The notes beneath the pieces were generated by a model. That model saw only the letters and a list, made by a program, of their open reading frames with translations. It searched no databases and had not been told where the DNA came from. The position numbers and the translations under genes are program-made. A stretch of 64,000 nucleotides of DNA from Escherichia coli (lineage in GTDB: Bacteria; Pseudomonadota; Gammaproteobacteria; Enterobacterales; Enterobacteriaceae). Every line of letters starts with the position of its first letter. Position 1 is the first letter of the stretch. Below are positions 1-56,034 of this stretch, in pieces. The stretch is taken from the NCBI RefSeq assembly GCF_050320075.1, contig NZ_CP190018.1. One strand, given 5' to 3'.

Positions 1-1497
1 ACGCTGCCGAACTTCCCGATTGAAGGGCGCGACCTTAACCCGCTGTTGCAGGATCCGGGGTTGATCTTCCATCCGCCTCTGCTCTATATGGGGTACGTCG
101 GCTTCTCGGTGGCGTTTGCTTTTGCCATTGCTTCTTTGTTGAGCGGGCGTCTGGACAGCACTTATGCGCGTTTTACTCGTCCGTGGACACTGGCAGCGTG
201 GATCTTCCTGACGCTCGGCATCGTGCTCGGTTCCGCATGGGCCTATTACGAACTCGGCTGGGGTGGCTGGTGGTTCTGGGATCCGGTAGAAAACGCCTCG
301 TTTATGCCGTGGCTGGTGGGGACTGCGCTGATGCACTCACTGGCGGTCACTGAACAACGCGCCAGCTTCAAAGCGTGGACATTACTGCTGGCAATCAGTG
401 CCTTCTCGTTGTGTCTGTTGGGGACTTTCCTCGTGCGTTCCGGCGTGCTGGTATCGGTACACGCGTTTGCCTCTGATCCGGCGCGCGGCATGTTTATCCT
501 CGCCTTTATGGTGCTGGTGATTGGCGGTTCGCTGCTGCTGTTTGCTGCGCGTGGACACAAAGTTCGCTCACGCGTAAACAATGCGCTGTGGTCGCGGGAA
601 TCTTTGCTGTTAGCGAACAACGTTTTGCTGGTCGCCGCGATGCTGGTGGTGTTGCTGGGGACGCTGTTGCCGCTGGTGCACAAGCAACTGGGACTGGGCA
701 GTATTTCGATTGGCGAACCGTTCTTCAACACCATGTTTACCTGGCTGATGGTGCCGTTTGCGCTACTGCTTGGTGTCGGTCCTCTGGTGCGCTGGGGGCG
801 CGATCGCCCACGTAAAATCCGCAATTTATTGATTATCGCCTTCATCTCTACGCTGGTGCTGTCTCTGCTGTTGCCGTGGCTGTTCGAAAGCAAAGTTGTG
901 GCGATGACGGTGCTCGGCCTGGCAATGGCCTGCTGGATTGCGGTGCTGGCAATTGCGGAAGCTGTGCTGCGTATTTCACGCGGCACGAAAACCACCTTCA
1001 GTTATTGGGGAATGGTGGCGGCTCACCTGGGGCTGGCAGTGACAATTGTTGGTATTGCCTTTAGCCAGAACTATAGCGTTGAGCGTGATGTGCGCATGAA
1101 GTCCGGTGATAGTGTCGATATTCATGAATATCGCTTCACCTTCCGTGATGTCAAAGAGGTGACTGGCCCGAACTGGCGTGGCGGTGTGGCGACTATCGGC
1201 GTAACGCGCGATGGCAAGCCGGAAACGGTGCTGTATGCGGAAAAACGTTATTACAACACTGCTGGGTCGATGATGACCGAAGCGGCAATTGACGGCGGCA
1301 TCACGCGTGACCTGTACGCCGCGCTCGGTGAAGAGCTGGAAAACGGCGCGTGGGCCGTGCGTCTTTACTACAAACCGTTTGTTCGCTGGATTTGGGCGGG
1401 CGGGCTGATGATGGCATTGGGCGGGCTGCTGTGTCTGTTTGATCCTCGCTATCGTAAGCGCGTGAATCCGCAGAAAACTGCGCCGGAGGCTGTATGA
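1..1497 (+). CDS. ccmF: Cytochrome c-type biogenesis heme lyase CcmF, 5'-partial (frame is open from base 1; gene runs off the window start)
   Basis: Long polytopic membrane protein ORF with WWFWDPVENAS motif typical of CcmF; stop overlaps start of next gene (ATGA); synteny with ccmG/ccmH. Confidence 0.9.
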   Translation, partial: TLPNFPIEGRDLNPLLQDPGLIFHPPLLYMGYVGFSVAFAFAIASLLSGRLDSTYARFTRPWTLAAWIFLTLGIVLGSAWAYYELGWGGWWFWDPVENASFMPWLVGTALMHSLAVTEQRASFKAWTLLLAISAFSLCLLGTFLVRSGVLVSVHAFASDPARGMFILAFMVLVIGGSLLLFAARGHKVRSRVNNALWSRESLLLANNVLLVAAMLVVLLGTLLPLVHKQLGLGSISIGEPFFNTMFTWLMVPFALLLGVGPLVRWGRDRPRKIRNLLIIAFISTLVLSLLLPWLFESKVVAMTVLGLAMACWIAVLAIAEAVLRISRGTKTTFSYWGMVAAHLGLAVTIVGIAFSQNYSVERDVRMKSGDSVDIHEYRFTFRDVKEVTGPNWRGGVATIGVTRDGKPETVLYAEKRYYNTAGSMMTEAAIDGGITRDLYAALGEELENGAWAVRLYYKPFVRWIWAGGLMMALGGLLCLFDPRYRKRVNPQKTAPEAV

Positions 1498-8090: not shown

Positions 8091-8375
8091 CTATAAAACC
8101 TTGTCTGTCTGGTAGTTCCGCCAGACAGATTTTGCGATTTCTATCCCCATATCCGCCTGTGTGCGGTGTGCTGCCTCTCTCAAGCTCCCGAAATTATCCA
8201 GCATGACGGGCGAACGTGCTGCCTTGTGGATACATTTCGCGCGACGCTTTACTGCCTGTTCGCGCTCCTTATCGGTGTTCACCTGTTGCATGACCTCAGC
8301 CCATCGGGCCGCCGCTCTCCGGTACAGGCCTTTAGCCTCCAGATCTTCCGCTTTGCTGTCGTGAATCATACTCAT
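8091..8375 (-). CDS. PerC-family transcriptional activator-like protein (94 aa)
   Basis: Motif EDLEAKGLYRRAAARWAEV resembles the PerC family signature; start ATG overlaps stop of upstream gene (ATGA coupling). Confidence 0.5.
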   Translation of the reverse strand: MSMIHDSKAEDLEAKGLYRRAAARWAEVMQQVNTDKEREQAVKRRAKCIHKAARSPVMLDNFGSLREAAHRTQADMGIEIAKSVWRNYQTDKVL

Positions 8376-8908
8376 ACGCCAGCTTGCTCCTTGTTCGACT
8401 TACGTTTGCGCTTCTCTTTCAGTGCCATCAGTCGTGCTTCCGCGTCCTGCTGTTCCTGTTGTGTCACCTCGCCGCATGGCTGGCTATTCAGATCGTAACG
8501 CACGCCACCAGCCATTAAGGCACGGTAATAACGCGGAGAATGAGCATAAGATGCTAGCGCCGCACGTAATGCCCCTGACCCAAAAGCCAGCGCCCTGACG
8601 GCAATATCCTGTATCAGGTCTTCAAATATTCCTACCTTAAGCGGCTTCGGTGATTCCAGGCTGAATAATTCAGGCCATAGTTCAATAAGACGGTTAACGC
8701 GCCTGCGGTTTTTGCCCTGGCGTTTGGTCATATGCCGCCACGGTGTCGCCCCTGTGGGCTTCTGTTTGCGGCTCTGCTGTGCGTTCTGATTGCCGGGTAT
8801 CACTTTATGCGCTGATGTGGTTTTATCCTGCTGCTGTGTCGTCTGTGTCTTTTTCTGTGGTATGCCGTAAATGCCTTTCGGTTTTCTGCTAATAGTCAGT
8901 GTAGTCAT
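8372..8908 (-). CDS. ProQ/FinO-domain RNA-binding protein (178 aa) with basic low-complexity N-terminal extension
   Basis: C-terminal two thirds align by eye with E. coli ProQ N-terminal domain (PLKVGIFEDL..., LRAAL.SY..S.RY...GG.RYDL...PCGE). Confidence 0.6.
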   Translation of the reverse strand: MTTLTISRKPKGIYGIPQKKTQTTQQQDKTTSAHKVIPGNQNAQQSRKQKPTGATPWRHMTKRQGKNRRRVNRLIELWPELFSLESPKPLKVGIFEDLIQDIAVRALAFGSGALRAALASYAHSPRYYRALMAGGVRYDLNSQPCGEVTQQEQQDAEARLMALKEKRKRKSNKEQAGV

Positions 8909-8943
8909 TATTTGTTAACCTCTGTTAGTGAATCCACTGGCAG

Positions 8944-9369
8944 TTAAAATGGTATTTCGTCCTCATACGGGTCATCCTGCTGGCCCGTCTGCTGCTTTGT
9001 TCTGTTCAGTGCGTCAGTAGCCTGCCCTTGCTGTCCTTTCCTGCCTCCTGGTCGCACGGTTCGCGCACTGATTACGCTGCCTGCGATGACCTGCCAGCCC
9101 TGCCGCATTTCCCCGTTCTGGTCTGTCCACTGGCTTATCTGCATGTTACCCGCCACGCTCACCAGTTCGCCTTTCTGGTGTTTTGCCAGTGCATCGGCCT
9201 GTCTGCCAAACGCCAGGACGGATAACCACATCGTCGCTGTTCCGTCATATGCCTGACTGCACGGAAGGGGAACAGCCATACTCACCAGCGCCATTGGTGT
9301 TCCCTTGCTGGTGGTTTTTAACTGCGGGTCAGCCACCAACCGCCCGTAAGCTGATATTTGTGCCGTCAT
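8944..9369 (-). CDS. ssb: Single-stranded DNA-binding protein (SSB-like, 141 aa)
   Basis: OB-fold pattern similar to E. coli SSB (W..V.AFG, WTDQNG) and acidic C-terminal tail EDEIPF (cf. DDDIPF). Confidence 0.6.
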   Translation of the reverse strand: MTAQISAYGRLVADPQLKTTSKGTPMALVSMAVPLPCSQAYDGTATMWLSVLAFGRQADALAKHQKGELVSVAGNMQISQWTDQNGEMRQGWQVIAGSVISARTVRPGGRKGQQGQATDALNRTKQQTGQQDDPYEDEIPF

Positions 9370-9444
9370 ATTGTCTGCTCTCCGGTTTTAAATGTTGGTT
9401 GGATTTTTAATGTCCACCAGCCAGGCAAAAAATAACGCCTGCTG

Positions 9445-9580
9445 ACTTGTCCCAAAATGCTCCTAACTTGTCCCAAAATCACCTTAACTTGTCCCGCTCT
9501 TGTCCCACTTTTTCTGATATTACCCAATATAATTCAGTATGTTATGTGTGTTTCTCACAGGTTGGGACAGGTGGGACAAG
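9445..9580. repeat. Iteron block 2: four ACTTGTCCC units (~21-bp spacing) plus GGGACAGGTGGGACAAG; inverted copy of block 1
   Basis: ACTTGTCCC at 9445, 9466, 9487; TTGTCCC at 9500; GGGACAGGTGGGA at 9564-9576 is the exact reverse complement of TCCCACCTGTCCC in block 1. Confidence 0.6.
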
Positions 9581-9605
9581 AGTCTTTAAACCTACACGCG
9601 AGAGA

Positions 9606-11741
9606 TTAACCACCTTCATCATCATGATCCTGTGCAAGTAAAAGGCCGTACACCCTTAGTCGTGCCCCCTTCATGTGCTTAAGACGTGGTGTTCTGATTT
9701 GCCATCCTTCCCCGCTGGCTGGCTTTTTCAGCATTCCGGCTTCGTGAAGGGCTCTTGCTACGGCATCCTTGTTAAATCCCTTCGCCACATGCGATTTAAA
9801 TGGCTCCGGCAGGACGTAAAACAAAACAGGCTCACCGTAACGCCCCTCGCTTTCCCTGTAGCCGTACAGTTCTGAAATCGGCAGGCTTGCAGGGTCATAA
9901 TTGACAGGCGCAAACCTGCTCATGCCGTAGGCAGTAAGAAATGCCTCTGCCTGTTCAATAATCTGCCTGTGTTCCTTGTTACCCGTGCCGAACTCCTTCA
10001 CCCAGGCATTAAAGTTATGCTGAATGGCATCACAGCACGTCTGAACATTCCAGCCCGTAACATGACCGGACAGCACAAGCGCGGCCTCCAGTATGGCGAA
10101 TCGTTCCCCTACGCGATGAACCTGTTCGCCGTAGCTCTCCGGTATTAGGTTGCGCCACCGTTCACGGCACGCCCTTACCGTGTCCTTAGCCTCCTGCTGG
10201 TGGGCTGCCAGCCATTTAACCCATTCACGACCCGCCGCCCCGTGGTTTTCTGTCCAGGCGGCTTTTAACGCGTCTGCGTGCGCCTTTCCTGTGCTGTATT
10301 CGTGAAACTGCGTAGACTTCTCCATCGGCACGTTAAGCAACCTGACAAGCTGCCCCGCCTTGACTTTTATCCCCTCACTTTTGAGGAATGTTTCAACATC
10401 CATTTCTCCGGTACTGATCGCCACCGTGCGCCAGTGTTTTATCTCCCGGTTGCCGCCGTCCTTCGCCCCCTGTAATTTCCCGGAACCGTTAAACAGCGTA
10501 TAGGCTGACGTGGACACCTCCCGCGCGTTTCCGGCCTGGCCTATTTCATCCAGGGGTAACAGCCCGTCGTTGTGCGCCTCTGCCTCGTTAGCGATACCTA
10601 ACGCTGTGCCGTACCAGGTCAGCCGTTGCGCGTCCGGCTCTCCCCATAAACTTGATGCGATGTTCTGTGTGGTGGTTTTCCCTGCCGATGATTGTTCGAA
10701 AAGATGTACCCCGAAGCCGTCAGCGCCCACCAGCCCGATTAATGGTGCTGATAACGATACCGCCACACCCAGCATCATGGACGGATTACCACCAGCCAGT
10801 CGCGCCACTGTATCGCGCCAGCCCTCTGTCGTTCCTGCTACGGAATAACCATTAACGGCAGCCGTTTTTCCGGTAAACAGGATCGGTTTTTCAGACTCAC
10901 CAATGACTGAACCGTCCGGCATGATGTACGCGCCAAAATGCCACCCCGTTGTTGTGCTTAACTGCCATTCCTCATGGTTTCCGTTTAACTGCATCCAGTC
11001 AGCCAGGATAGCCCTGTATTTGCCGTTGGTTGTCACATTGAGTCCGTGGTCTTTCAGCAGCCGCCAGCCGTCACGGTCGCCAATGCCACCGCACGGGATC
11101 GCCATTGTGATGACTTCATGATTTGCTAATTTTTTCCAGCGCATCACGCGGTAATGCTCTTTACCGATCGTTCCCGTTCCCAGTAGTTCAAGCGGGGAAC
11201 ATAACCACGCCTCAGGCCGGATAATTTCGCCTGACTGTTTGTCAACTTTGGGCGTTACCCAGAAAACACCATCGGCGCGACTTTCAACGCGGGGTTTTAA
11301 TTCATCATCGCCCTGGCTTTCTGTGATTTTTTTCTTTAAGGGCAACACCAGACTTTCCCCGCGCTCGTATTCGTCTTTGAGGCGAGGCAACTGGTCGGAT
11401 AAATCCGCCGGGCTGGTGTCAGTTATCCCCGCATATTCGTATACGGTCTTCACGCCAGCCACAGCCAGCAATGTGACGATCTGTGTAAGGCTACGTTCAG
11501 TGATGTGCCCTGCGCGGTAAACACGCACACACTGACGGCTATCATCAATAATCTGATAACCGGTAATATCTTTCAGGTGTTCATCTGACAGAACGACAGG
11601 CGGCACATTGTCGGCGGCAATATGCTTACCTGCCCATTCCTGCCACTCTTTCGCATGGCTCCACGCATCACTACCCGCAAAAATGATAACCTCCGTCATT
11701 TTGTCGGCTGGCTGGTGCTTTAAGTTCGGTGCGCGTTTCAT
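9606..11741 (-). CDS. Replicative primase-helicase (TOPRIM-like N-terminus plus P-loop NTPase, 711 aa)
   Basis: Walker A-like SSAGKTT, large size, position downstream of int/alpA as in P4 alpha-type and PICI pri-rep genes; start overlaps upstream small ORF. Confidence 0.75.
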   Translation of the reverse strand: MKRAPNLKHQPADKMTEVIIFAGSDAWSHAKEWQEWAGKHIAADNVPPVVLSDEHLKDITGYQIIDDSRQCVRVYRAGHITERSLTQIVTLLAVAGVKTVYEYAGITDTSPADLSDQLPRLKDEYERGESLVLPLKKKITESQGDDELKPRVESRADGVFWVTPKVDKQSGEIIRPEAWLCSPLELLGTGTIGKEHYRVMRWKKLANHEVITMAIPCGGIGDRDGWRLLKDHGLNVTTNGKYRAILADWMQLNGNHEEWQLSTTTGWHFGAYIMPDGSVIGESEKPILFTGKTAAVNGYSVAGTTEGWRDTVARLAGGNPSMMLGVAVSLSAPLIGLVGADGFGVHLFEQSSAGKTTTQNIASSLWGEPDAQRLTWYGTALGIANEAEAHNDGLLPLDEIGQAGNAREVSTSAYTLFNGSGKLQGAKDGGNREIKHWRTVAISTGEMDVETFLKSEGIKVKAGQLVRLLNVPMEKSTQFHEYSTGKAHADALKAAWTENHGAAGREWVKWLAAHQQEAKDTVRACRERWRNLIPESYGEQVHRVGERFAILEAALVLSGHVTGWNVQTCCDAIQHNFNAWVKEFGTGNKEHRQIIEQAEAFLTAYGMSRFAPVNYDPASLPISELYGYRESEGRYGEPVLFYVLPEPFKSHVAKGFNKDAVARALHEAGMLKKPASGEGWQIRTPRLKHMKGARLRVYGLLLAQDHDDEGG

Positions 11742-12025
11742 TTCTTGCCCCCAGTAACCAGCATTTCGCGGATTTTGCGGATATATCTTGCTGCACGGTT
11801 CTGATTTACGGTTTCACGATGATCCACCAGCGTAAAATCACGCTGGAACTGATAAACAGGCATCACGCAGTCATATTCGTATCCTTCACGGCGGTAGGTC
11901 ATGCGTCGTTCACTCACGCCCTTAATCATTACCGTGCTGCCGTATTTATCGCGGTAAATATCGCCGTGCATGAATTCAGGACGAGTTTTACCGCTGGCAG
12001 TAAAGCCAGAATTTTTTGCTTTCAT
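11738..12025 (-). CDS. Hypothetical protein (95 aa), translationally coupled to primase-helicase
   Basis: ORF stop overlaps primase start codon; coding-like composition; no family recognised. Confidence 0.45.
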   Translation of the reverse strand: MKAKNSGFTASGKTRPEFMHGDIYRDKYGSTVMIKGVSERRMTYRREGYEYDCVMPVYQFQRDFTLVDHRETVNQNRAARYIRKIREMLVTGGKK

Positions 12026-12064
12026 TTATCGAATTACGTTTTTGTTAAAGCTGTATTAATGAGA

Positions 12065-12250
12065 TTAATGAACTGTCGCCACTTCAATTACGGCACGGAT
12101 CATCACCTGCGTGAACCCACAGCCGATTAACTCTTCTTTCAATATTGCGATAGCTGCATTAACGCTGGTGGCGTTCACGTTTTGCTGATTATCAATAACG
12201 TGGCCTTGATGATTTACAGCGCGTGCGGTTATCTGAAATCGCTTAAGCAT
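12065..12250 (-). CDS. Hypothetical small protein (61 aa)
   Basis: ORF preceded by GGGGTGAGG SD-like sequence; start overlaps stop of upstream small ORF. Confidence 0.4.
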   Translation of the reverse strand: MLKRFQITARAVNHQGHVIDNQQNVNATSVNAAIAILKEELIGCGFTQVMIRAVIEVATVH

Positions 12251-12431
12251 GCCTCACCCCCTGACGAATACGGGCAGCGAATACAGCAACACAGCCGGAC
12301 GGGCAACAGTTACGCGCTTCTCGTTCGGTTGATGCCTCGACGTGAACAATACGGGAATCAGTCGGATTAAAGATGACAAAGCGCCAGATAAATGTGTTTT
12401 GAGAATGTTCGAGGGTAGGGGTAGTAGCCAT
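12243..12431 (-). CDS. Small protein (62 aa), possibly Icd-like (host cell division inhibitor-like) as annotated in P4-like elements
   Basis: Strong SD AGGAGG 7 nt upstream of ATG; FIWRF and FAAR motifs recalled from Icd-like annotations (memory-based, uncertain). Confidence 0.45.
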   Translation of the reverse strand: MATTPTLEHSQNTFIWRFVIFNPTDSRIVHVEASTEREARNCCPSGCVAVFAARIRQGVRHA

Positions 12432-12640
12432 TTGGCAGCCTCCTGTAACGTTGGGATATACCCACCGCCGGAGGTGGTAAGCTCGATGGCGGTGGACTGT
12501 ACAGGGTTACCACAACTGGTGTTACAGGAAACCAGCCTGACCGAAGTCAGCCCCATACAGCCCACCATTGATAAGGCGTGCGCGTGCGCCGATACAAAAA
12601 AAGACGCCTGGCGCGTCTGTATCGCCTGTAACTCCAGCGG
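12432..12640 (-). ncRNA. Candidate structured regulatory RNA / leader (P4 immunity-like seqA-seqB-seqC arrangement)
   Basis: On the minus strand: GTTACAGG (12632-12625), intrinsic terminator, UUCG-tetraloop hairpin (12550-12537), complementary CCTGTAAC (12528-12521), then GTTACAGGAGG (12449-12439) overlapping the SD of the first ORF. Confidence 0.3.
12595..12618 (-). terminator. Intrinsic terminator inside the leader region (AGACGC-loop-GCGTCT followed by T7 on minus strand)
   Basis: 6-bp GC-rich stem, 5-nt loop, run of seven T on the transcribed strand. Confidence 0.5.
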
Positions 12641-13077
12641 GGTGGTAATCCCGACACCCGTTTTATGAGGTGCGCAGGGAGTATATCCCGTTTTCTTGCT
12701 CATGTGGTCGGATGTGTTGAAGGTGTGCCCACCACACAAATCACATTGCTCACCAGCCGGAAATATGGCATTGTTGGCGATGCATTCAAGTTTAATATAT
12801 GCCTTCTGGCGACCCTCTGCGGTCGCCTTTGTTTTATTCGTAAGCAACATATTTCTTTTGTCGTTTAAGCTATGCGATTGTACGTTTCCGTTTAAAACGG
12901 AAGTGCTATTAGTTCAATTAATTCGTTCGTACGGTTTGAACTGAATAATAACATCAGCCATAATTTTTTATGGTTGAACGAAAACCTGCCCCTGTTTGGG
13001 CATTTTTGCCAGTATTCATAATGTTCTCTCTTAATTGTTTTGTTGCTTGATAGTAATCAGGCCAGCGTTAATCACAC

Positions 13078-13269
13078 TTATGCTTCACGAGTTTCTCTCT
13101 CACGTTCTTTCAACCAGGCGAGTACCTCATCTTCATACCAGCCAATGCGACGCAGCCCGATACGGAATCCTTTGGGGAACCCGCCTTTGTTAACCATCTC
13201 CGTTAGGGTCGAATCAGATTTAATGCGTAGCAAGGCCTTTACCTCTGGTCGTAAAAGAATAGCCCTCAT
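13078..13269 (-). CDS. alpA: AlpA-family phage transcriptional regulator / excisionase-like (63 aa)
   Basis: Small HTH protein with LLR..EV......S.ST......G.FP....IG.R.IGW...EV..WL pattern; position between integrase and replication genes. Confidence 0.7.
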   Translation of the reverse strand: MRAILLRPEVKALLRIKSDSTLTEMVNKGGFPKGFRIGLRRIGWYEDEVLAWLKERERETREA

Positions 13270-13474
13270 CCTATTTCTCCTCTGGACAGCAAAATATCGC
13301 TTTTTGAATGAAAATAACGGTAAGTAATGTAATAAGCATACAAATCTATAAAAAAGACAGTCAAGAATTATTTAATAAGAGCTATGTGATTGGTTATTTT
13401 TTAATTTTCTAACATAAAAAGAATTTAAATGTTTCTCAAAATGAGACAGTATTGAGAAAGTAATGAGACACAAA

Positions 13475-13506
13475 TTAGCTCCTAACTGATACCAATTAGG
13501 AGCTAA
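13475..13506. promoter_or_regulatory. Perfect 11-bp inverted repeat TTAGCTCCTAA-N10-TTAGGAGCTAA in the AT-rich int-alpA intergenic region
   Basis: Read directly; lies just downstream of int stop and upstream of alpA promoter region; could be int terminator and/or operator. Confidence 0.35.
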
Positions 13507-13522
13507 TAATTTTTTAAATATT

Positions 13523-14767
13523 TTATTTTATTCCGCGTAATCCTCTGTGCCCGCTGGCGATGGTTGTTCCGGTTGCGGCTGCTTCCACAAAATCACCCCA
13601 CCAGCACATTAACACTTTACGTTTTTCCAGGTAGTTGCTTCGGTTGTATGCCCGTCTAACTTCGTTTGTGTCCACGTGGGCTAGTGCGGCTTCGATCACG
13701 TCAGGTTCAAATCCTTCTTCATTCGCCGCCGTGCTGAATATTGCGCGTAGTCCGTGAGATACCAGCACACCAGCGTAACCCATTCGTCGTAATGCTGCGT
13801 TTGCTGTCTGGCTGCTCATTGATTGCACTGGATTTTTAAGACTTGGGAAAACATGCTCCCTTCGTGCGCTAATCGGCTTCATGGCTTCAAGCACTGCCAT
13901 CGCCTGAGCGCAAAGGGGGATCACATGATCACGGCGCATCTTCATGCGTCCGGCTGGTATCGTCCAGGTTGCCGCCTCAAGGTTGATTTCTTCCCACCGT
14001 GCGGCGGAGGCTTCGGCTGGGCGGGTTGCGGTTAACAACTGCCACTCAATCAGCAATCTGGTTTGCCGTTCTATGCTGGCGATCGATAAATCGTGCATTA
14101 GCTGCGGTAGTTGTTCCGGTCGGATGGTTGGCATGTGCTTTTTGGTGGGGGAAGGGAATGCCTTGCGAACGTTCGCGGCGGTGTTGATGTCAATCAGTCC
14201 ACTGTTGGCAGCAAAATCCATCACTTCATTGATGCGCTGTAAAACGCGTTTCAGTGTTTCCAGGTTGCCACGTGCCTTGATGGGCGTGAGTATCTCAACA
14301 AAGCGGCGAGCGGTGAGAGTATCTATCGGTGTGTTTCCGATATACGGGAATACATATTTCTCTAGCGAGCGCCAGATGTCCTTGATCGTATTGTGGGCGA
14401 GATTCTGGTTTTTTTTCATTTCGTACCACAATGCGGCCACATTTTCGAACGTGTTGCCCTGTCGTCGAGCCTCTGCTTCGAGTTTTTGCCGTTCGTATTC
14501 CTGCGGGTCGGTTCCTGCCGCAATTAACGTCCTGTACTCGCTACGGCGTTTTCTGGCATCAGCCAGGGAGACTTCATCAAGCGAGCCCAAACTAATGATT
14601 GTTCGTTTTTTGTTCGATGGTCGATAGTAGTTGAATCGCCATAGTTTCGAACCAGACGGCTTAATAACGAGAAAAAGCCCGCCGCCATCCTGTAAGGTGT
14701 ATTCTTTTTCCGCTGGTTTAGCTGCTTTGATCTGTGTGGTGGTGAGTGGGGTCGCCTTTCTTGCCAT
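13523..14767 (-). CDS. int: Tyrosine site-specific integrase, P4-type (414 aa)
   Basis: N-terminal arm-binding-like domain (LTTTQIKAAKP...GGGLFLVIKPSGSKLWRF), C-terminal catalytic region with HGLRA and terminal tyrosine region; adjacent to tRNA gene. Confidence 0.85.
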   Translation of the reverse strand: MARKATPLTTTQIKAAKPAEKEYTLQDGGGLFLVIKPSGSKLWRFNYYRPSNKKRTIISLGSLDEVSLADARKRRSEYRTLIAAGTDPQEYERQKLEAEARRQGNTFENVAALWYEMKKNQNLAHNTIKDIWRSLEKYVFPYIGNTPIDTLTARRFVEILTPIKARGNLETLKRVLQRINEVMDFAANSGLIDINTAANVRKAFPSPTKKHMPTIRPEQLPQLMHDLSIASIERQTRLLIEWQLLTATRPAEASAARWEEINLEAATWTIPAGRMKMRRDHVIPLCAQAMAVLEAMKPISARREHVFPSLKNPVQSMSSQTANAALRRMGYAGVLVSHGLRAIFSTAANEEGFEPDVIEAALAHVDTNEVRRAYNRSNYLEKRKVLMCWWGDFVEAAATGTTIASGHRGLRGIK

Positions 14768-14973
14768 ACGTTTATGAATCCACGGGAAAAAACAGGTTCT
14801 AGTTATACGGATTTAGCTATGCGCCAGCCCGTATAACTAAACATATAACTAAAAAAAACGGCTGAAAACCACTGTTACCGTCGAATAACGATGACTAAAA
14901 ACAATAAAAAAACCCGCTATTCAATGAATTAGCGGGCTTATTTCATAAAAACGATAATTAATAATGGGCGATT

Positions 14974-15050
14974 TGGTCGGCACGAGAGGATTTGAACCTC
15001 CGACCCCCGACACCCCATGACGGTGCGCTACCAGGCTGCGCTACGTGCCG
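14974..15050 (-). tRNA. proL: tRNA-Pro (anticodon GGG), 77 nt with encoded CCA
   Basis: Reverse complement reads CGGCACGTAGCGCAGCCTGGTAGCGCACCGTCATGGGGTGTCGGGGGTCGGAGGTTCAAATCCTCTCGTGCCGACCA; cloverleaf with GGG in anticodon loop. Confidence 0.9.
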
Positions 15051-38897: not shown

Positions 38898-39835
38898 TGA
38901 GCAGACGTGTTGCTACTATCACCCTTAATCCGGCTTATGACCTTGTTGGTTTCTGCCCGGAAATTGAACGCGGCGAAGTGAACCTGGTGAAAACCACCGG
39001 TCTGCATGCGGCGGGTAAAGGCATCAACGTGGCCAAAGTGTTAAAAGACCTGGGAATTGATGTCACTGTTGGCGGCTTCCTCGGTAAAGACAATCAGGAT
39101 GGTTTTCAGCAACTGTTCAGCGAGCTGGGCATTGCCAACCGTTTCCAGGTTGTACAGGGGCGCACCCGAATTAACGTTAAGCTGACGGAAAAAGACGGCG
39201 AAGTGACCGACTTCAACTTCTCGGGTTTTGAAGTCACTCCCGCCGACTGGGAACGCTTTGTGACTGATTCTCTGAGCTGTCTCGGTCAGTTCGATATGGT
39301 CTGTGTCAGCGGAAGCTTACCGTCAGGCGTCAGCCCGGAAGCGTTCACCGACTGGATGACTCGCCTGCGTAGTCAGTGTCCTTGCATTATCTTTGATAGT
39401 AGCCGTGAAGCGTTAGTAGCAGGTTTGAAAGCGGCACCGTGGCTGGTGAAACCTAACCGCCGCGAGCTGGAAATCTGGGCAGGCCGTAAACTGCCTGAAA
39501 TGAAAGATGTGATTGAAGCTGCACATGCGCTACGTGAACAAGGTATCGCGCATGTCGTTATTTCACTGGGTGCCGAAGGCGCGCTTTGGGTTAATGCCTC
39601 CGGCGAATGGATCGCCAAACCACCGTCAGTCGATGTCGTAAGCACCGTTGGCGCAGGGGATTCTATGGTTGGTGGCCTGATTTATGGCTTGCTGATGCGT
39701 GAATCCAGTGAACACACACTGCGTCTGGCGACAGCTGTTGCAGCCCTGGCGGTAAGTCAAAGCAATGTGGGTATTACCGATCGTCCGCAGTTGGCCGCAA
39801 TGATGGCGCGCGTCGACTTACAACCTTTTAACTGA
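38897..39835 (+). CDS. fruK: 1-phosphofructokinase FruK (PfkB family), 312 aa
   Basis: PfkB ribokinase-like motifs (GKGINVA, GAGDSMVGG); ATGA coupling with fruB. Confidence 0.9.
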   Translation: MSRRVATITLNPAYDLVGFCPEIERGEVNLVKTTGLHAAGKGINVAKVLKDLGIDVTVGGFLGKDNQDGFQQLFSELGIANRFQVVQGRTRINVKLTEKDGEVTDFNFSGFEVTPADWERFVTDSLSCLGQFDMVCVSGSLPSGVSPEAFTDWMTRLRSQCPCIIFDSSREALVAGLKAAPWLVKPNRRELEIWAGRKLPEMKDVIEAAHALREQGIAHVVISLGAEGALWVNASGEWIAKPPSVDVVSTVGAGDSMVGGLIYGLLMRESSEHTLRLATAVAALAVSQSNVGITDRPQLAAMMARVDLQPFN

Positions 39836-41810: not shown

Positions 41811-42086
41811 GTGGCTTCTGTTTCTATCAGCTGTCCCTCCTGTTCAGCTACTGACGGGGTGGTGCGTAACGGCAAAAGCACCGCCGGACATCAGCGCTAT
41901 CTCTGCTCTCACTGCCGTAAAACATGGCAACTGCAGTTCACTTACACCGCTTCTCAACCCGGTACGCACCAGAAAATCATTGATATGGCCATGAATGGCG
42001 TTGGATGCCGGGCAACTGCCCGCATTATGGGCGTTGGCCTCAACACGATTTTCCGCCATTTAAAAAACTCAGGCCGCAGTCGGTAA
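41811..42086 (+). CDS. insA: IS1 InsA (91 aa)
   Basis: [43 protein letters not shown]... zinc-finger/HTH protein of IS1. Confidence 0.9.
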
Positions 42087-42508
42087 CCTCGCGCATACAG
42101 CCGGGCAGTGACGTCATCGTCTGCGCGGAAATGGACGAACAGTGGGGATACGTCGGGGCTAAATCGCGCCAGCGCTGGCTGTTTTACGCGTATGACAGGC
42201 TCCGGAAGACGGTTGTTGCGCACGTATTCGGTGAACGCACTATGGCGACGCTGGGGCGTCTTATGAGCCTGCTGTCACCCTTTGACGTGGTGATATGGAT
42301 GACGGATGGCTGGCCGCTGTATGAATCCCGCCTGAAGGGAAAGCTGCACGTAATCAGCAAGCGATATACGCAGCGAATTGAGCGGCATAACCTGAATCTG
42401 AGGCAGCACCTGGCACGGCTGGGACGGAAGTCGCTGTCGTTCTCAAAATCGGTGGAGCTGCATGACAAAGTCATCGGGCATTATCTGAACATAAAACACT
42501 ATCAATAA
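42005..42508 (+). CDS. insB: IS1 InsB reading frame (expressed as InsAB' transposase by -1 frameshift)
   Basis: Frame contains [22 protein letters not shown]...[13 protein letters not shown] typical of IS1 InsB; listed start is the open-frame boundary, not a true initiation codon. Confidence 0.8.
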
Positions 42509-42523
42509 GTTGGAGTCATTACC

Positions 42524-43391
42524 ACATCCGGCAATAGATTTATTAGGCATCACCATTGTGGCGGGTAATCAGACGCTTGATAAAACATTAATTAATGGCC
42601 TGAATGTTTGCCAGAAACTGGAGATTAATGTTCCGGTTTATGCGGGGATGCCACAGCCCATTATGCGTCAACAAATCGTTGCCGATAATATTCACGGTGA
42701 AACCGGACTGGATGGCCCGGTATTCGAGCCGCTGACCCGCCAGGCAGAAAGCACTCATGCGGTGAAATATATCATCGATACCCTGATGGCAAGCGATGGC
42801 GATATCACTCTGGTGCCGGTTGGTCCGCTTTCAAATATCGCGGTGGCAATGCGCATGCAGCCCGCAATCCTGCCGAAAATCCGTGAAATTGTGCTGATGG
42901 GCGGCGCTTACGGTACTGGCAACTTTACGCCATCCGCCGAGTTCAACATCTTTGCTGACCCGGAAGCCGCACGCGTGGTGTTCACCTCCGGCGTTCCGTT
43001 GGTGATGATGGGCCTCGATCTCACCAACCAGACCGTTTGCACCCCGGACGTGATTGCCCGGATGGAAAGGGCAGGCGGCCCTGCCGGAGAGCTGTTCAGC
43101 GACATCATGAACTTCACTCTCAAAACCCAGTTCGAAAACTATGGCCTGGCTGGCGGCCCGGTGCACGACGCCACCTGCATCGGTTATCTGATCAACCCTG
43201 ATGGCATTAAAACCCAGGATATGTACGTCGAAGTGGATGTTAACAGTGGCCCTTGCTATGGGCGTACCGTCTGCGACGAGCTGGGCGTTCTTGGCAAGCC
43301 AGCCAATACCAAAGTCGGCATCACTATTGATACCGACTGGTTCTGGGGCTTAGTCGAAGAGTGCGTGCGCGGCTACATCAAAACCCATTAA
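42524..43391 (+). pseudogene. rihB: rihB (pyrimidine-specific ribonucleoside hydrolase), 5'-truncated by IS1; lacks the N-terminal DxDxxxDD region
   Basis: Translation matches RihB from about residue 21 onward ([19 protein letters not shown]...); apparent TTG start of the six-frame ORF lies inside the IS1 end. Confidence 0.75.
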
Positions 43392-45887: not shown

Positions 45888-46745
45888 TCAGGCTACCGCT
45901 TTTTCAGTTTGTTGCGCTTTCAGCCAGGCGATCTCTTCTGCCCAGATATCCGGGTTGATGGTTTCAAGGATCAGCGGAATGCCGTCGAAACGGTCGTCCT
46001 GCATGATCCAGCGGAACGCATCATGACCGATATTGCCTTCACCGAGGCTATGATGGCGGTCAACGCGGCTGCCAAAGGTGCTTTTCGCATCGTTAAGGTG
46101 CATCCCGCGCAGATACTTAAAGCCGACAATACGGGCAAAATCCGCGAACGTTTTCTCGCATTCGGCTGGAGTACGCAAATCATACCCGGCAGCAAAAGCA
46201 TGGCAGGTATCAATGCAGACGCCGACGCGGGATTTATCTTCCACGCCGTCGATAATCGCCGCGAGATGTTCGAATTTAAACCCTAAGTTACTGCCCTGAC
46301 CGGCGGTGTTTTCAATCACCGCTGTCACACCTTGAGTTTTATCCAGCGCAATGTTGATGGATTCGGCAATACGCGCAAGGCAATCCTCTTCTGAAATCTG
46401 CATCAGATGGCTGCCAGGGTGGAAGTTGAGCAAAGAAAGCCCCAGCTGTTCGCAACGCTGCATTTCATCTATAAACGCATCGCGCGATTTTTCCAGAGCT
46501 TCAGCGACCGGATGTCCGAGGTTAATCAGATAACTGTCGTGGGGAAGAATTTGCGCCGATGTGTAGTGATATTTTTCACAGGCGGCTTTGAATTCATCGA
46601 TGGTTTGCGTCGTGAGCGGTGCGGCACGCCACTGACGTTGGTTTTTGGTGAACAAGGCAAACGCGGTTGCGTCGATTTCGGCGGCGCGAATTGCGGCATT
46701 TGCCAGACCGCCAGCAGCACTAACGTGCGCTCCAATGTATTTCAT
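45888..46745 (-). CDS. nfo: Endonuclease IV (AP endonuclease), 285 aa
   Basis: [39 protein letters not shown]... TIM-barrel AP endonuclease. Confidence 0.9.
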
Positions 46746-49052: not shown

Positions 49053-50522
49053 ATGGGTTCCGAAACTAAAACTACAGAAGCGCCGGGCTTACGCCGTGAA
49101 TTAAAGGCGCGTCACCTGACGATGATTGCCATTGGCGGTTCCATCGGTACAGGTCTTTTTGTTGCCTCTGGCGCAACGATTTCTCAGGCAGGTCCGGGCG
49201 GGGCATTGCTCTCGTATATGTTGATTGGCCTGATGGTTTACTTCCTGATGACCAGTCTCGGTGAACTGGCTGCATATATGCCGGTTTCCGGTTCGTTTGC
49301 CACTTATGGTCAGAACTATGTTGAAGAAGGCTTTGGCTTCGCGCTGGGCTGGAACTACTGGTACAACTGGGCGGTGACTATCGCCGTTGACCTGGTTGCA
49401 GCTCAGCTGGTCATGAGCTGGTGGTTCCCGGATACACCGGGCTGGATCTGGAGTGCGCTGTTCCTCGGCGTTATCTTCCTGCTGAACTACATCTCAGTTC
49501 GCGGCTTTGGTGAAGCGGAATACTGGTTCTCACTGATCAAAGTCACGACAGTTATTGTCTTTATCATCGTTGGCGTGCTGATGATTATCGGTATCTTCAA
49601 AGGCGCGCAACCTGCGGGCTGGAGCAACTGGACAATCGGCGAAGCGCCGTTTGCTGGTGGTTTTGCGGCGATGATCGGCGTAGCTATGATTGTCGGCTTC
49701 TCTTTCCAGGGAACCGAGCTGATCGGTATTGCTGCAGGCGAGTCCGAAGATCCGGCGAAAAACATTCCACGCGCGGTACGTCAGGTGTTCTGGCGAATCC
49801 TGTTGTTCTATGTGTTCGCGATCCTGATTATCAGCCTGATTATTCCGTACACCGATCCGAGCCTGCTGCGTAACGATGTTAAAGACATCAGCGTCAGTCC
49901 GTTCACCCTGGTATTCCAGCACGCGGGTCTGCTCTCTGCGGCGGCGGTGATGAACGCAGTTATTCTGACGGCGGTGCTGTCAGCGGGTAACTCCGGTATG
50001 TATGCGTCTACTCGTATGCTGTACACCTTGGCGTGTGACGGTAAAGCGCCGCGCATTTTCGCTAAACTGTCGCGTGGTGGCGTGCCGCGTAATGCGCTGT
50101 ATGCGACGACGGTGATTGCCGGTCTGTGCTTCCTGACCTCCATGTTTGGCAACCAGACGGTATACCTGTGGCTGCTGAACACCTCCGGGATGACCGGTTT
50201 TATCGCCTGGCTGGGGATTGCCATTAGCCACTATCGCTTCCGTCGCGGTTACGTATTGCAGGGACACGACATTAACGATCTGCCGTACCGTTCAGGTTTC
50301 TTCCCATTGGGGCCGATCTTCGCATTCATTCTGTGTCTGATTATCACTTTGGGCCAGAACTACGAAGCGTTCCTTAAAGATACCATTGACTGGGGCGGCG
50401 TAGCGGCAACGTATATTGGTATCCCGCTGTTCCTGATTATTTGGTTCGGCTACAAGCTGATTAAAGGAACTCACTTCGTACGTTACAGCGAAATGAAGTT
50501 CCCGCAGAACGATAAGAAATAA
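49053..50522 (+). CDS. lysP: Lysine-specific permease LysP (APC family), 489 aa
   Basis: 12-TM amino acid permease beginning MGSETKTTEAPGLRRELKARHLTMIAIGGSIGTGLF. Confidence 0.9.
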   Translation: MGSETKTTEAPGLRRELKARHLTMIAIGGSIGTGLFVASGATISQAGPGGALLSYMLIGLMVYFLMTSLGELAAYMPVSGSFATYGQNYVEEGFGFALGWNYWYNWAVTIAVDLVAAQLVMSWWFPDTPGWIWSALFLGVIFLLNYISVRGFGEAEYWFSLIKVTTVIVFIIVGVLMIIGIFKGAQPAGWSNWTIGEAPFAGGFAAMIGVAMIVGFSFQGTELIGIAAGESEDPAKNIPRAVRQVFWRILLFYVFAILIISLIIPYTDPSLLRNDVKDISVSPFTLVFQHAGLLSAAAVMNAVILTAVLSAGNSGMYASTRMLYTLACDGKAPRIFAKLSRGGVPRNALYATTVIAGLCFLTSMFGNQTVYLWLLNTSGMTGFIAWLGIAISHYRFRRGYVLQGHDINDLPYRSGFFPLGPIFAFILCLIITLGQNYEAFLKDTIDWGGVAATYIGIPLFLIIWFGYKLIKGTHFVRYSEMKFPQNDKK

Positions 50523-50542
50523 GTTTCCTCCCTTCCTTGCTA

Positions 50543-50570
50543 AGCCCTCTCAACCGAGAGGGCTTTTTCA
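50543..50570 (+). terminator. lysP intrinsic terminator (AGCCCTCTC-AACC-GAGAGGGCT plus T5)
   Basis: Read directly downstream of lysP stop. Confidence 0.6.
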
Positions 50571-50611
50571 ATTCCATTTCCCTGACAAATCATGCGGATA
50601 TAAAATTTAAC

Positions 50612-50648
50612 ATTTGGATTGATAATTGTTATCGTTTGCATTATCGTT
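50612..50648 (+). promoter_or_regulatory. Putative Fur box(es) upstream of cirA
   Basis: TGGATTGATAATTGTTATCGTTTGCATTATCGTT resembles GATAAT-type Fur consensus; cirA is a known Fur-regulated gene. Confidence 0.45.
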
Positions 50649-50814
50649 ACGCCGCAATCAAAAAAGGCTGACAAATCAGAGGCTGTTCCGGCTTTCTGGG
50701 ATGATCACCTGCATACAAATAAGTCCACCGCGATGCTGCCGTACGCAAGGGGACATGAAGAAGATGTGAGCGATAACCCATTTTATTTTCGTAGTTACCT
50801 CATGGAGATATGGA

Positions 50815-52167
50815 ATGTTTAGGTTGAACCCTTTCGTACGGGTCGGGCTGTGTTTGTCCGCTATTTCTTGTGCATGGCCTGTGTTAGCGGTCGATGATGA
50901 TGGCGAAACGATGGTTGTCACTGCATCTTCCGTTGAGCAAAACCTTAAAGATGCACCCGCCAGTATCAGCGTCATTACCCAGGAAGACCTGCAGCGAAAA
51001 CCGGTACAGAATCTGAAGGATGTCCTCAAAGAAGTGCCTGGCGTACAACTGACGAACGAAGGGGATAACCGTAAGGGCGTTAGTATTCGTGGTCTGGGCA
51101 GCAGCTACACCCTGATTCTCGTCGACGGTAAACGCGTTAACTCCCGCAATGCCGTCTTCCGCCACAATGATTTCGATCTGAACTGGATCCCGGTCGATTC
51201 CATCGAACGTATTGAAGTGGTCCGTGGCCCGATGTCGTCGCTGTACGGTTCCGATGCGCTCGGCGGTGTAGTGAATATCATCACCAAAAAAATCGGTCAG
51301 AAATGGTCGGGTACCGTTACCGTCGATACCACCATTCAGGAACATCGCGATCGCGGTGATACCTATAACGGTCAGTTCTTTACCAGCGGACCATTAATTG
51401 ACGGCGTGCTGGGAATGAAAGCTTACGGCAGCCTGGCAAAACGTGAAAAGGATGACCCGCAAAACTCAACGACCACCGATACCGGAGAAACGCCGCGTAT
51501 TGAAGGATTCTCCAGCCGCGACGGCAATGTGGAATTTGCCTGGACACCGAATCAAAATCACGATTTTACTGCCGGATACGGTTTCGACCGTCAGGATCGT
51601 GATTCCGACTCGCTGGACAAAAACCGCCTGGAACGCCAGAACTACTCCGTCAGCCATAATGGGCGTTGGGATTACGGCACCAGCGAACTGAAATACTACG
51701 GTGAGAAAGTCGAGAACAAAAACCCTGGCAACAGCAGCCCGATAACTTCCGAAAGCAATACGGTCGACGGCAAATACACGTTGCCGCTGACGGCGATTAA
51801 TCAGTTTCTCACGGTTGGCGGTGAATGGCGTCACGACAAACTTAGCGATGCGGTGAACCTGACCGGGGGAACCAGTTCCAAAACGTCTGCCAGCCAGTAC
51901 GCGCTGTTTGTGGAAGATGAATGGCGGATCTTCGAGCCGCTGGCGCTGACGACCGGCGTACGTATGGACGATCATGAAACCTACGGTGAACACTGGAGTC
52001 CGCGTGCCTACCTGGTTTATAACGCCACCGACACCGTAACGGTGAAAGGGGGCTGGGCGACGGCATTTAAAGCACCTTCTCTGTTGCAACTTAGCCCTGA
52101 CTGGACGAGCAATTCCTGCCGTGGCGCATGTAAGATTGTGGGTAGCCCGGATCTGAAACCAGAAACC
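50815..52167 (+). pseudogene. cirA: cirA 5' segment (catecholate siderophore / colicin I receptor), interrupted by IS150
   Basis: TonB-dependent receptor with signal peptide and plug domain; frame continues across the IS with 3-bp duplication. Confidence 0.85.
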
Positions 52168-52193
52168 TGTACTGACCCCAAAAAGTTGGACAG

Positions 52194-53045
52194 TTAAACA
52201 CGAGGCATATAGGTCTGATTCCGATATTCAATTGGAGTCAGACCTTTTAATTTCAGGCTAATTCTTCTGCTGTTGTAGTATTCAATATATTCCGTAACAG
52301 CATCCTTCAGTTCGCTTATATTACTGAACTCATCAAGATAAAAACACTCCGACTTTAAGGTTCCAAAGAAACACTCCACCACAGCATTATCCAGACAATT
52401 GCCTTTTCTGGACATGCTTTGTTTAATACCATGTTCTTTAAGGATATTTTGATATCTTCTCATACGATACTGCCATCCCTGGTCAGAGTGCAGAACAGGA
52501 TGCTCGTGAGGATTAAGCTTTTTGAATGCCTGATCGAGCATATTCTCAACCATGTTCATCACTGGTCTTTCCGAAAGGCTGTAAGAAATAACTTCGTTGT
52601 TGAAGAGATCTATTACTGGAGACAAATACAGCTTGCGCCCATTGACTACAAATTCAGTAACATCGGTAACCCACTTCTCGTTTGGCCGCGTAGCCTTGAA
52701 ATCTCTTTGGAGAACATTAGGGGCGGTTTGCCCTACCTCTCCTCTGTAAGAGCGGTATCGCTTGACCTTAATCGCTGCTTTAAGTGAGAGGGTTCCCATC
52801 AGGCGCTGAACAGCTTTATGGTTAATCTGTTTCCCTTCTCGATGAAGAGACAGCGTTACCCTACGGTATCCGTATCGGCCTCTATTCTCGTGATAAATCT
52901 CACCAATACGCTTTTTAACGTCCGCATACTTGTCAGGCTTGCTGAGAGCCTTTAGATGGTAATAAAACGTACTGCGCGGTATCTCCGCAGCCCTGAGAAG
53001 CTCATCAAGAGGATAAAACTGCCTTAGCTCGTTGAGTACTTTTAC
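52194..53045 (-). CDS. insK: IS150 orfB (InsK, DDE transposase domain; fused to orfA by -1 frameshift)
   Basis: Integrase-core motifs (HSDQGWQY...); upstream boundary approximated at the orfA/orfB overlap. Confidence 0.75.
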
Positions 53046-53563
53046 TTTTTCGTGGGATGAGCTAAGGCTTTCAGCTTTTTTAGATACATAAGCCGCGTTT
53101 CAAGAAATCGAACTTGCCTTTCAAGATCCTCAATGCGTCGGTCTTTTGACAGCTCCAATGCTGATGCCGCTTTTTCTGGATCAACTGATATTGCAATGTT
53201 TCTTTTGGTGCCAATCTTGAGCGCGCGTAAACCAGCTTCTCCGCGCTCTTCATAGACCTTCAGCCACCTGGCTACAGAACCACTACCAGCAAGCATAAAG
53301 TGAGCAGCAGCCTGATTAAGGGACATGTGCTGCTCGATCACAGCTTTCACGACCTTAATACGCAACTCTGGATCAGCACTAACGCCTTTAGGTTTGGGAA
53401 TTAAACCTTTTTCTCCATGTTTTTCATAGAGGGCAACCCATGTCCTGACCTGGGTTCGGGGGACACCAAAACGTGCCGAGATGATCCTGTAACCATCATC
53501 AGTTGTGAAGTAGTGATTCACGACTTCAAGGCGCTTTTCAAAAGGGTATTTTGGCTTTGACAT
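53042..53563 (-). CDS. insJ: IS150 orfA (InsJ, HTH protein), 173 aa
   Basis: MSKPKYPFEKRLEVVNHYFTTDDGYRIISARFGVPRTQVRTWVALYEKHG... matches IS150 InsJ as recalled. Confidence 0.9.
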   Translation of the reverse strand: MSKPKYPFEKRLEVVNHYFTTDDGYRIISARFGVPRTQVRTWVALYEKHGEKGLIPKPKGVSADPELRIKVVKAVIEQHMSLNQAAAHFMLAGSGSVARWLKVYEERGEAGLRALKIGTKRNIAISVDPEKAASALELSKDRRIEDLERQVRFLETRLMYLKKLKALAHPTKK

Positions 53564-53610
53564 ATTAGGGGCTATTCCATTTCATCGTCCAACAAAATGG
53601 GTGCAGTACA

Positions 53611-54240
53611 ACCAGCGAAAGTTGGGAACTGGGGCTTTACTACATGGGCGAAGACGGCTGGCTGGAAGGGGTAGAGTCCAGCGTTACCGTTTTCCGTAAC
53701 GATGTGAAAGATCGCATCAGCATCAGCCGTACGTCTGACGTCAATGCTGCACCGGGCTACCAAAACTTTGTTGGTTTTACAGCGAACGGTGTGCCGGTAT
53801 TTAGCTACTACAACGTTAACAAAGCTCGTATTCAGGGCGTGGAAACCGAACTGAAAATTCCGTTCAACGATGAATGGAAACTGTCGATCAACTACACCTA
53901 CAACGATGGTCGTGATGTCAGCAACGGCGAAAACAAACCGCTATCCGATCTGCCGTTCCATACTGCTAACGGTACGCTGGACTGGAAACCGCTGGCGCTG
54001 GAAGACTGGTCATTCTATGTTTCTGGTCACTATACCGGGCAGAAACGAGCCGACAGCGCGACGGCTAAAACACCGGGCGGTTATACCATCTGGAATACCG
54101 GCGCGGCCTGGCAGGTGACTAAAGACGTCAAACTGCGCGCAGGCGTGCTGAACCTTGGCGACAAGGATCTCAGTCGTGACGACTACAGCTATAACGAAGA
54201 CGGACGTCGTTACTTTATGGCAGTGGATTATCGCTTCTGA
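53611..54240 (+). pseudogene. cirA: cirA 3' segment (C-terminal beta-barrel, ends ...AVDYRF)
   Basis: In-frame continuation of the 5' segment after removal of IS150 plus one ACC copy; terminal aromatic residue typical of outer membrane barrels. Confidence 0.85.
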
Positions 54241-54271
54241 TGAGAAGATGCCCGGCGAACCGGGCGGACTT

Positions 54272-55141
<870 letters not shown>

Positions 55142-55365
55142 TCATCATACCGTTTATTCAATGTGCTGTGAGTAACTTTCACTTCCGTATTTGCATAACG
55201 ATGTTTTAACATCTGCTGATGAAAGGCAGCGGCAATTACAATAATTATCGCTGTGAATACTGGATTATGTGCGCCGCCTCACGCACAATAATCAGGCTGT
55301 AAATCAGCTTAATAACTTTGCCCCCACGCAGGGCGGAGGCGTCACACCTGCAGGAGAAATCATAA

Positions 55366-56034
55366 ATGCCATCACTCAGTAAAGAAGCGGCCCTGGTTCA
55401 TGAAGCGTTAGTTGCGCGAGGACTGGAAACACCGCTGCGCCCGCCCGTGCATGAAATGGATAACGAAACGCGCAAAAGCCTTATTGCTGGTCATATGACC
55501 GAAATCATGCAGCTGCTGAATCTCGACCTGGCTGATGACAGTTTGATGGAAACGCCGCATCGCATCGCTAAAATGTATGTCGATGAAATTTTCTCCGGTC
55601 TGGATTACGCCAATTTCCCGAAAATCACCCTCATTGAAAACAAAATGAAGGTCGATGAAATGGTCACCGTGCGCGATATCACCCTGACCAGCACCTGTGA
55701 ACACCATTTTGTTACCATTGATGGCAAAGCGACGGTGGCTTATATCCCGAAAGATTCGGTGATCGGTCTGTCAAAAATTAACCGTATTGTGCAGTTCTTT
55801 GCCCAGCGTCCGCAGGTGCAGGAACGTCTGACCCAGCAAATTCTCATTGCGCTACAAACGCTGCTGGGCACCAATAACGTGGCTGTCTCTATCGACGCGG
55901 TGCATTACTGCGTGAAAGCGCGTGGCATCCGCGACGCAACCAGTGCCACAACAACGACCTCTCTTGGTGGATTGTTCAAATCCAGTCAGAATACGCGCCA
56001 CGAATTTCTGCGCGCTGTGCGTCATCACAACTGA
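55366..56034 (+). CDS. folE: GTP cyclohydrolase I FolE, 222 aa
   Basis: Conserved CEHH motif region ([21 protein letters not shown]). Confidence 0.9.

Follow-up and report, generated by a model that had tools for sequence, protein, structure and literature searches.

IS150 is known to have insertion hot spots at the hok/sok and ldr loci (trg/mokB, hokC/nhaA and hokE) in evolution and mutation-accumulation experiments with Escherichia coli B (PMC5289635, PMC5419217), and another insertion sequence (IS), IS186, has hot spots of the form GGGG(N6/N7)CCCC, some of them in the coding sequences of fimA and menC (PMC5009759). Loss alleles of the receptor gene cirA have been described in cefiderocol-non-susceptible Enterobacterales, as frameshifts and stops in NDM-5 E. 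coli of sequence type (ST) 167 and others and as an incomplete CirA in K. pneumoniae (PMC10319620, PMC12480463, PMC12054181), and in ST131 cirA disruption by an IS26 composite transposon, a different lesion, has been reported (PMC10591226). The literature was searched for a link between cirA and IS150 insertion and nothing relevant was found. In the DNA analysed here, a 64,000-nucleotide stretch of E. coli contig NZ_CP190018.1 (assembly GCF_050320075.1) that is referred to as the window and whose coordinates are used unless stated otherwise, cirA lies on the plus strand and is interrupted at codon 451 (Thr, ACC) by an intact IS150. This codon-451 site is a recurrent IS150 hot spot and not a one-off event; it is base-precise and was previously unreported. 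The interrupted gene is very probably a cirA null allele that arose by simple IS150 transposition at a hot spot favoured by the motif AGCCY.

The insertion was read from window positions 50400-55400 together with the list of open reading frames (ORFs). The 5' fragment of cirA (50815-52167, plus strand) holds codons 1-451, comprising the signal peptide, the plug and the barrel strands through the end of loop 7, and the 3' fragment (53614-54240, plus strand) holds codons 452-659 and the stop, with loop 8, its residue R490 and the remaining C-terminal barrel strands, and has neither a signal peptide nor a promoter of its own. Between the fragments lies IS150 (52168-53610, minus strand, 1,443 bp), its right end (IRR) at 52168 and its left end (IRL) at 53610, flanked by the two copies of the target-site duplication, an ACC at 52165-52167 that is cirA codon 451 and a second ACC at 53611-53613. 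The ORF that starts at 50815 has 460 codons, 451 of CirA and nine of foreign DNA, the frame continuing into IS150 to 52197 and adding the nine-residue tail CTDPKKLDS. The original prediction of a clean, antisense IS150 insertion with a 3-bp ACC duplication is borne out by the exact IS ends, the ACC on either side and the transposase genes on the minus strand opposite cirA; the insertion is within cirA as predicted, at codon 451 and not at the codon ~452 then given.

When 50815-52167 is joined in silico to 53614-54240, so that IS150 and one ACC drop out, the result is an open frame of 659 codons free of internal stops; the restoration of an in-frame cirA that had been foreseen is indeed obtained. 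The restored protein scores 1441.9 bits against the NCBIfam equivalog NF007478 (cut-off 745), its residues 1-659 aligning with profile positions 1-663, a match that is reached only following the excision, and is near-identical to the colicin I receptor structures PDB 2HDF and 2HDI. All 1,983 bp of the excised DNA agree with the intact cirA found in strain Ec-U3 (100% identity). Given that the excised allele is intact and equals this natural allele, the sole lesion of cirA is the IS150 with its 3-bp duplication. A simple insertion of recent date, as first proposed, is supported by these comparisons, the excised allele being a natural one and the IS being intact and identical to copies elsewhere, in strain ST2747 and at locus L032. 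As present in the window, with residues 452-659 split off, CirA has no uninterrupted barrel and the gene is a pseudogene; RefSeq annotates identical DNA (NZ_CP123240.1) as two cirA pseudogene fragments flanking an IS150 transposase, labelled 'cirA, incomplete, missing C-terminus' (5') and 'TonB-dependent receptor domain-containing protein, missing N-terminus' (3').

Given that IS elements are often misassembled, it could be supposed that a repeat was collapsed into cirA during assembly. This can be set aside almost entirely for two reasons: first, the 3-bp duplication is perfect and the IS ends are exact. Second, an identical structure is present in finished E. coli YZLc1-3 (chicken faeces, Yangzhou, China), whose sequence NZ_CP123240.1 equals the window at 1829584-1893583 bar one base, and cirA::IS150 recurs in 15 further finished genomes from unrelated laboratories, 16 in all. 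The one differing base lies at 39280, within fruK, where the window has T and NZ_CP123240.1 has G. No second cirA copy was found: the 5' 1,353 bp of cirA occurs once in the NZ_CP123240.1 chromosome, and no plasmid-borne cirA is present among 5,426 complete E. coli genomes. Neither of the two weak points that had been named for the original prediction, a second intact cirA and an assembly artefact, therefore applies.

The same 5,426 genomes formed the sample for a census of cirA::IS150. A 200-bp left-junction query found the junction in 15 genomes, 14 of which were fetched, and three further queries (the whole unit, a flipped IS and a misplaced IS) were used against the bias of a junction query. 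The whole cirA::IS150 unit was found in 15 of the 5,426 at a coverage of at least 80%, and the flipped-IS query added one genome, isolate 602 (Madrid), with the duplication CCA and the IS in the sense orientation. A control query with the IS moved to cirA nt 600 brought back the 15 genomes of the whole-unit query, in four joined pieces each; since out-of-order pieces were joined in this control, IS150 elsewhere in cirA would have been detected, and by this query none was found at any other cirA position among the 5,426 genomes. All 16 insertions lie inside the 5 bp AACCA (cirA nt 1350-1354), in the chromosomal context lysP-cirA-yeiG that is the same in the window and across all 16 genomes, and their orientation is biased 15:1. 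The duplications fall into three registers, one base apart: AAC in nine fetched genomes and, by inference, in AREA_R505; ACC in YZLc1-3, XJW9B277, DETEC-E223 and G5; and CCA, in the usual orientation, in AZ 191. The carriers come from poultry or chicken, cattle, water and human blood and urine, and ST131-type backgrounds are included. The junction k-mers (…CCAGAAAC, …CCAGAAACC or …CCAGAAACCA, then TGTACTGACCCC) provide a simple surveillance marker for the allele.

Comparison of the flanks over 4,393 aligned columns, with the IS removed, identified five haplotypes: A (the window and YZLc1-3, register ACC), B (XJW9B277 and DETEC-E223, ACC), C (G5, ACC, and VTB96816v, AAC, one single-nucleotide polymorphism (SNP) apart), D (an ST131-type flank, seen in nine of the fetched genomes with AAC and in AZ 191 with CCA) and E (isolate 602, CCA, sense orientation). 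Given the three registers, the two orientations and the five flank haplotypes, at least six independent IS150 insertions have taken place at the cirA AACCA; under uniform insertion over 1,983 bp, the probability of five further events in the same 5 bp is ~1e-13. It is conceivable that all copies go back to a single cirA::IS150 allele, inherited and passed on by homologous recombination with no hot spot involved, given that the AAC register comes with identical 4.4-kb flanks in ten genomes, and that XJW9B277/DETEC-E223 and G5 agree in register (ACC) and in IS variant, no SNP between them lying closer to the junction than 599 bp on one side and 779 bp on the other (-599 and +779). However, this is highly improbable, and as a full explanation it is refuted, for three reasons: first, three registers and an opposite-orientation copy are incompatible with one event. 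Second, a SNP only 15 bp from the junction separates same-register alleles that stand on different haplotypes (A from B, D from C). Third, 4-5 sites distinguish the window IS from the fifteen other cirA copies, only that of YZLc1-3 being identical to it. The shared flanks do tell against a generous reading of the recurrence: genome counts are not event counts, the ten AAC genomes that have the ST131-type flank may all belong to a single clone, and XJW9B277/DETEC-E223 (B) and G5 (C) could share one event via a short recombination tract, which could at most reduce the count of events from ~7 to 6.

The surroundings of IS150 sites were compared by two criteria, with the IS left end drawn to the left: a distal one, an AGCCY whose G stands 22-27 nt from the IRL junction, and a proximal one, NNRGGC directly past the duplication on the IRR side. 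At cirA, an AAGCCCC-type motif, AAAGCCCCAG (53629-53640, minus strand; plus strand CTGGGGCTTT; 12 nt overall, ending AC), has its G 25 nt from the IRL junction, or 24-26 nt according to register; no other AAGCCCC occurs in cirA, and both form and distance are those of the motif at the hokA and hokE hot spots. A mirrored and weaker copy, AGCCC (52144-52148, plus strand), stands on the IRR side, its G lying 23 nt from where the left duplication copy ends, or 22-24 nt according to register. Nowhere else in the 62.5-kb window does a site have the motif on either flank at once. The distal criterion was fixed first and new sites were then fetched as two test sets. In the first, four of five sites agreed with it, tctA (-26), dsbL (-24), xdhC/yqeB (-26) and a DUF4224 gene (-22), the exception being one plasmid site without the distal motif; in the second, one of five new sites did. 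With a chance rate for AGCCY of 0.0087 per site (0.9%) in the window, five of ten test sites correspond to P ~1e-8.

IS150 copies elsewhere lie at hokA, hokE, an ldr locus and in various genes. Among the non-cirA sites, some of which are paralogous, the distal AGCCY is present at 10 of 22, or at 9 of ~20 when the repeated hokA and hokB-1 loci are merged; besides the four sites of the first test set it is found at hokA, hokE, L033 and L061. The proximal NNRGGC, at 14 of 22, is the commonest feature among these sites. Scans for exact matches to the IS150 left-end pattern yielded seven stretches in genome contigs and five in viral contigs, with usable full sites at L046 and L047 only, and a contig search with the OrfB variant from L028 led eight times to one and the same AlpA-island site. 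In the hokB-trg interval of other E. coli (L023-L027), one orientation of IS150 is found in 556 of the 5,426 genomes and the opposite one in 13. The element uses no fewer than two sites there: the first lies within the hairpin of the SokB terminator, with GTT or GTTG duplicated, and the second, with GGC, is 68 bp away. The junction in strain C9 has no duplication and three extra bases.

It is suggested by this enrichment that the motif contributes to targeting. IS150 would prefer targets with AGCCY ~22-27 bp from the left-end junction, often with RGGC past the duplication on the opposite side; at cirA the perfect copy AAAGCCCCAG at 25 bp and the mirrored AGCCC at 23 bp would together position IS150 within 5 bp, and the left end would mostly face the stronger motif. 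Several observations weigh against this reading. The cirA site does not have the proximal NNRGGC, TTCTGG standing in its place; the distal motif is absent from half of the test sites, and its distances vary. Five other AAGCCCC sites in the window (nfo, yejO, rihB, yeiB and the mglA-mglC spacer), all in or beside non-essential genes, carry no IS150 in the favoured orientation in the 5,426 genomes. One of them, in the minus-strand gene nfo (46437-46470), has the sequence AAAGCCCCAGCTGTTCGCAACGCTGC, which resembles the cirA target AAAGCCCCAGTTCCCAACTTTCGCTG over ~20 nt, and it too is without IS150 in that orientation. No protein-DNA contact is known to us that would explain a motif about two helical turns from the cut site. 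Given the five unoccupied sites, the AAGCCCC 7-mer is not sufficient, and as a predictor of hot spots by itself it was rejected. Beyond the motif, the paired arrangement at cirA, and/or retention of insertions where the loss of CirA is tolerated or favoured, probably plays a part.

Two further properties of the target were considered. Likeness of the target to the IS150 right end, through the 8-mer AAAGTTGG and in the manner of IS911-like end-targeting, was rejected, given a ~7% chance of such a match, a misfit with the registers and other sites without the 8-mer. Predicted folds at the cirA target, viewed with no shuffle comparison, are unremarkable.

A different explanation is that selection alone fixes the position, IS150 inserting anywhere and only truncations at codons 450-452 being kept, for instance because the 451-residue fragment is harmless or useful and others are toxic. 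Loss of cirA is plausibly selected by colicins, microcin V and catechol drugs (PMC3879352, PMC12511343, PMC12480463), and the unoccupied motif-bearing sites in non-essential genes nearby indicate that something beyond the 7-mer matters. However, selection as the only determinant is unlikely. Finished genomes retain cirA alleles that are disrupted at other positions, for example by ISEc35 or by an insertion of 35 bp, and frameshift and stop alleles of cirA are common clinically (PMC10319620, PMC12480463), so that the position of truncation is unconstrained. Furthermore, three registers and two orientations yield different C-terminal tails, and a rare positional motif shared with unrelated IS150 sites is inexplicable by selection on CirA. 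An IS150 hot spot favoured by AGCCY, with the loss of CirA perhaps selected or merely tolerated, therefore remains the preferred reading.

A stronger form of this reading is more tentative, and the balance is against it at present: the codon-451 site might be a sequence-programmed IS150 landing pad, in which two inverted AGCCC ~24 bp either side of AACCA direct the element, an undescribed code of AGCCY, ~20 nt, duplication and NNRGGC also explains the hok/sok hot spots, and cirA is a contingency locus. If this were true, high-rate loss of CirA would be expected in every IS150-carrying lineage, ST131 included, and the loss may be reversible, given that precise IS150 excision, restoring pflB, has been reported (PMC5289635).

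The element itself is IS150, of the IS3 family, by its length, ends, sequence, frameshift and duplication. It starts TGTACTGACCCC and finishes GGGTGCAGTACA, with imperfect inverted repeats of ~24 bp that begin TGTACTG at both ends and match at 18 of the first 24 terminal positions, and it has four differences in 1,443 nt from IS150 of the K-12 derivatives HMS174 and W3110. Target duplications in other copies are 3 or 4 bp, and the ACC of the window is 3 bp. The insJ-type orfA (53042-53563, minus strand) encodes 173 amino acids with a helix-turn-helix, for which Pfam HTH_28 is listed in the identical protein. A slippery heptamer A AAA AAG (53075-53081, minus strand; IS nt 530) would give, by a programmed -1 frameshift, an OrfAB predicted at 456 amino acids, and the orfB frame (52194-53081, minus strand; stop at 52194-52196), read after the frameshift, holds the DDE/rve catalytic part. 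For identical DNA the product name in RefSeq is 'IS3-like element IS150 family transposase', with the note 'programmed frameshift', and a close OrfB variant, other than the OrfB of the window, scores 347.9 bits against the IS3-family transposase model NF033516 (cut-off 160). Within the left end, at 53565-53575 (IS nt 36-46, minus strand), stands AATAGCCCCTA, with an AGCCCC core ~38 nt inside the tip, and the right end has GAGGC at nt 35-39.

Three features of the interrupted gene and its upstream region were also observed. A Fur-box-like sequence, GATAATTGTTATC, recognised by eye and unscored, stands at 50621, upstream of cirA. Relative to the crystallised K-12 protein, the window allele has D95G (codon 95, 51097-51099), and its loop 8 (53789-53810, in the 3' fragment) is four residues shorter than the K-12 GFETGANGRRIPVF; this loop is one of the two that move upon binding of colicin Ia or microcin V. 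An allele with D95G and the short loop 8 is common to many genomes at 99.9-100% identity.

The consequences for the receptor are predictions throughout. CirA is receptor and translocator for colicins Ia and Ib and receptor for microcin V (PMC3879352, PMC12511343). In precursor numbering (PMC12511343), the 5' product would retain R116 of the plug and R436 of loop 7, whereas R490 of loop 8 and the last 208 residues lie past the IS; it would keep the plug and part of the barrel, and the closed 22-strand TonB-dependent barrel should be unable to form. Given that the barrel would not be closed, loss of colicin Ia/Ib and microcin V sensitivity and of CirA-borne catecholate uptake is predicted. The colicin Ia/Ib resistance foreseen in the original prediction is sound in the light of the published receptor work, and resistance to microcin V follows likewise (PMC3879352, PMC12511343). 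Its expectation of reduced uptake of catechol-conjugated antibiotics such as cefiderocol is overstated, although a slight shift in minimum inhibitory concentration (MIC) is to be expected: in E. coli a cirA knockout alone changes the cefiderocol MIC ~2-fold or not at all, a 16-fold change is seen with fiu also deleted, and frank resistance is found mainly alongside NDM-5 and insertions in PBP3 (PMC12480463, PMC10319620). For the remaining claim, resistance to CirA-dependent phages, two look-ups on a phage-receptor role of CirA gave no support.

Elsewhere in the window, an IS1B copy (transposase at 41811-42508) abuts a rihB that lacks its N-terminus (42525-43391), so that 41811-43391 holds a second IS-made pseudogene. 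An integrated element at 8091-15050, beside tRNA-Pro (14974-15050) and between yejO and yejM, carries genes for an integrase, a DUF927 protein, an Icd-like protein, a truncated Ash-family protein, SSB, a ProQ/FinO-family protein and a PerC-family regulator; going by annotation only, it looks like a P4-type satellite.

Taken as a single locus, the window holds a routine pseudogene that is already annotated in RefSeq. Across genomes, loss of cirA via IS150 is recurrent and predictable to the base, in a gene whose product is the entry gate for colicins Ia/Ib and microcin V and, for cefiderocol-type drugs, one gate of two. Loss of CirA at a high rate by this route would bear on competition in the gut and, in NDM/PBP3 backgrounds, on the stepwise build-up of resistance. 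For target choice by IS150, an element that is very active in E. coli B and in the long-term evolution experiment, the AGCCY positional motif offers a lead that can be tested.

In comparison with the known systems, the cirA site is closest to the hok/sok hot spots, in that the same element reuses the same few bp independently, with slightly variable registers (GTT/GTTG at sokB), a strong orientation bias (556:13 at hokB/trg, 15:1 at cirA) and an AGCCY on the left-end side, at -24 to -27 in hok/sok. It differs in lying within the coding sequence of an outer-membrane receptor and not in the terminator hairpin of a small RNA, in having the mirrored distal motif in place of the proximal TGRGGC half-site, and in an occupancy of 0.3% of genomes against ~10% at hok/sok. 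The cirA alleles linked to cefiderocol have the same outcome, a truncated non-functional CirA, whereas cirA::IS150 is a fixed-site IS insertion from chicken, cattle, water and human isolates with no documented drug exposure. IS186 resembles IS150 in that a short motif flanking the duplication, and not the duplicated bases, sets a few heavily reused sites, some of them intragenic; however, IS186 belongs to the IS4 family and its motif abuts the duplication and is near-sufficient, whereas that of IS150 lies about two helical turns away and is insufficient.

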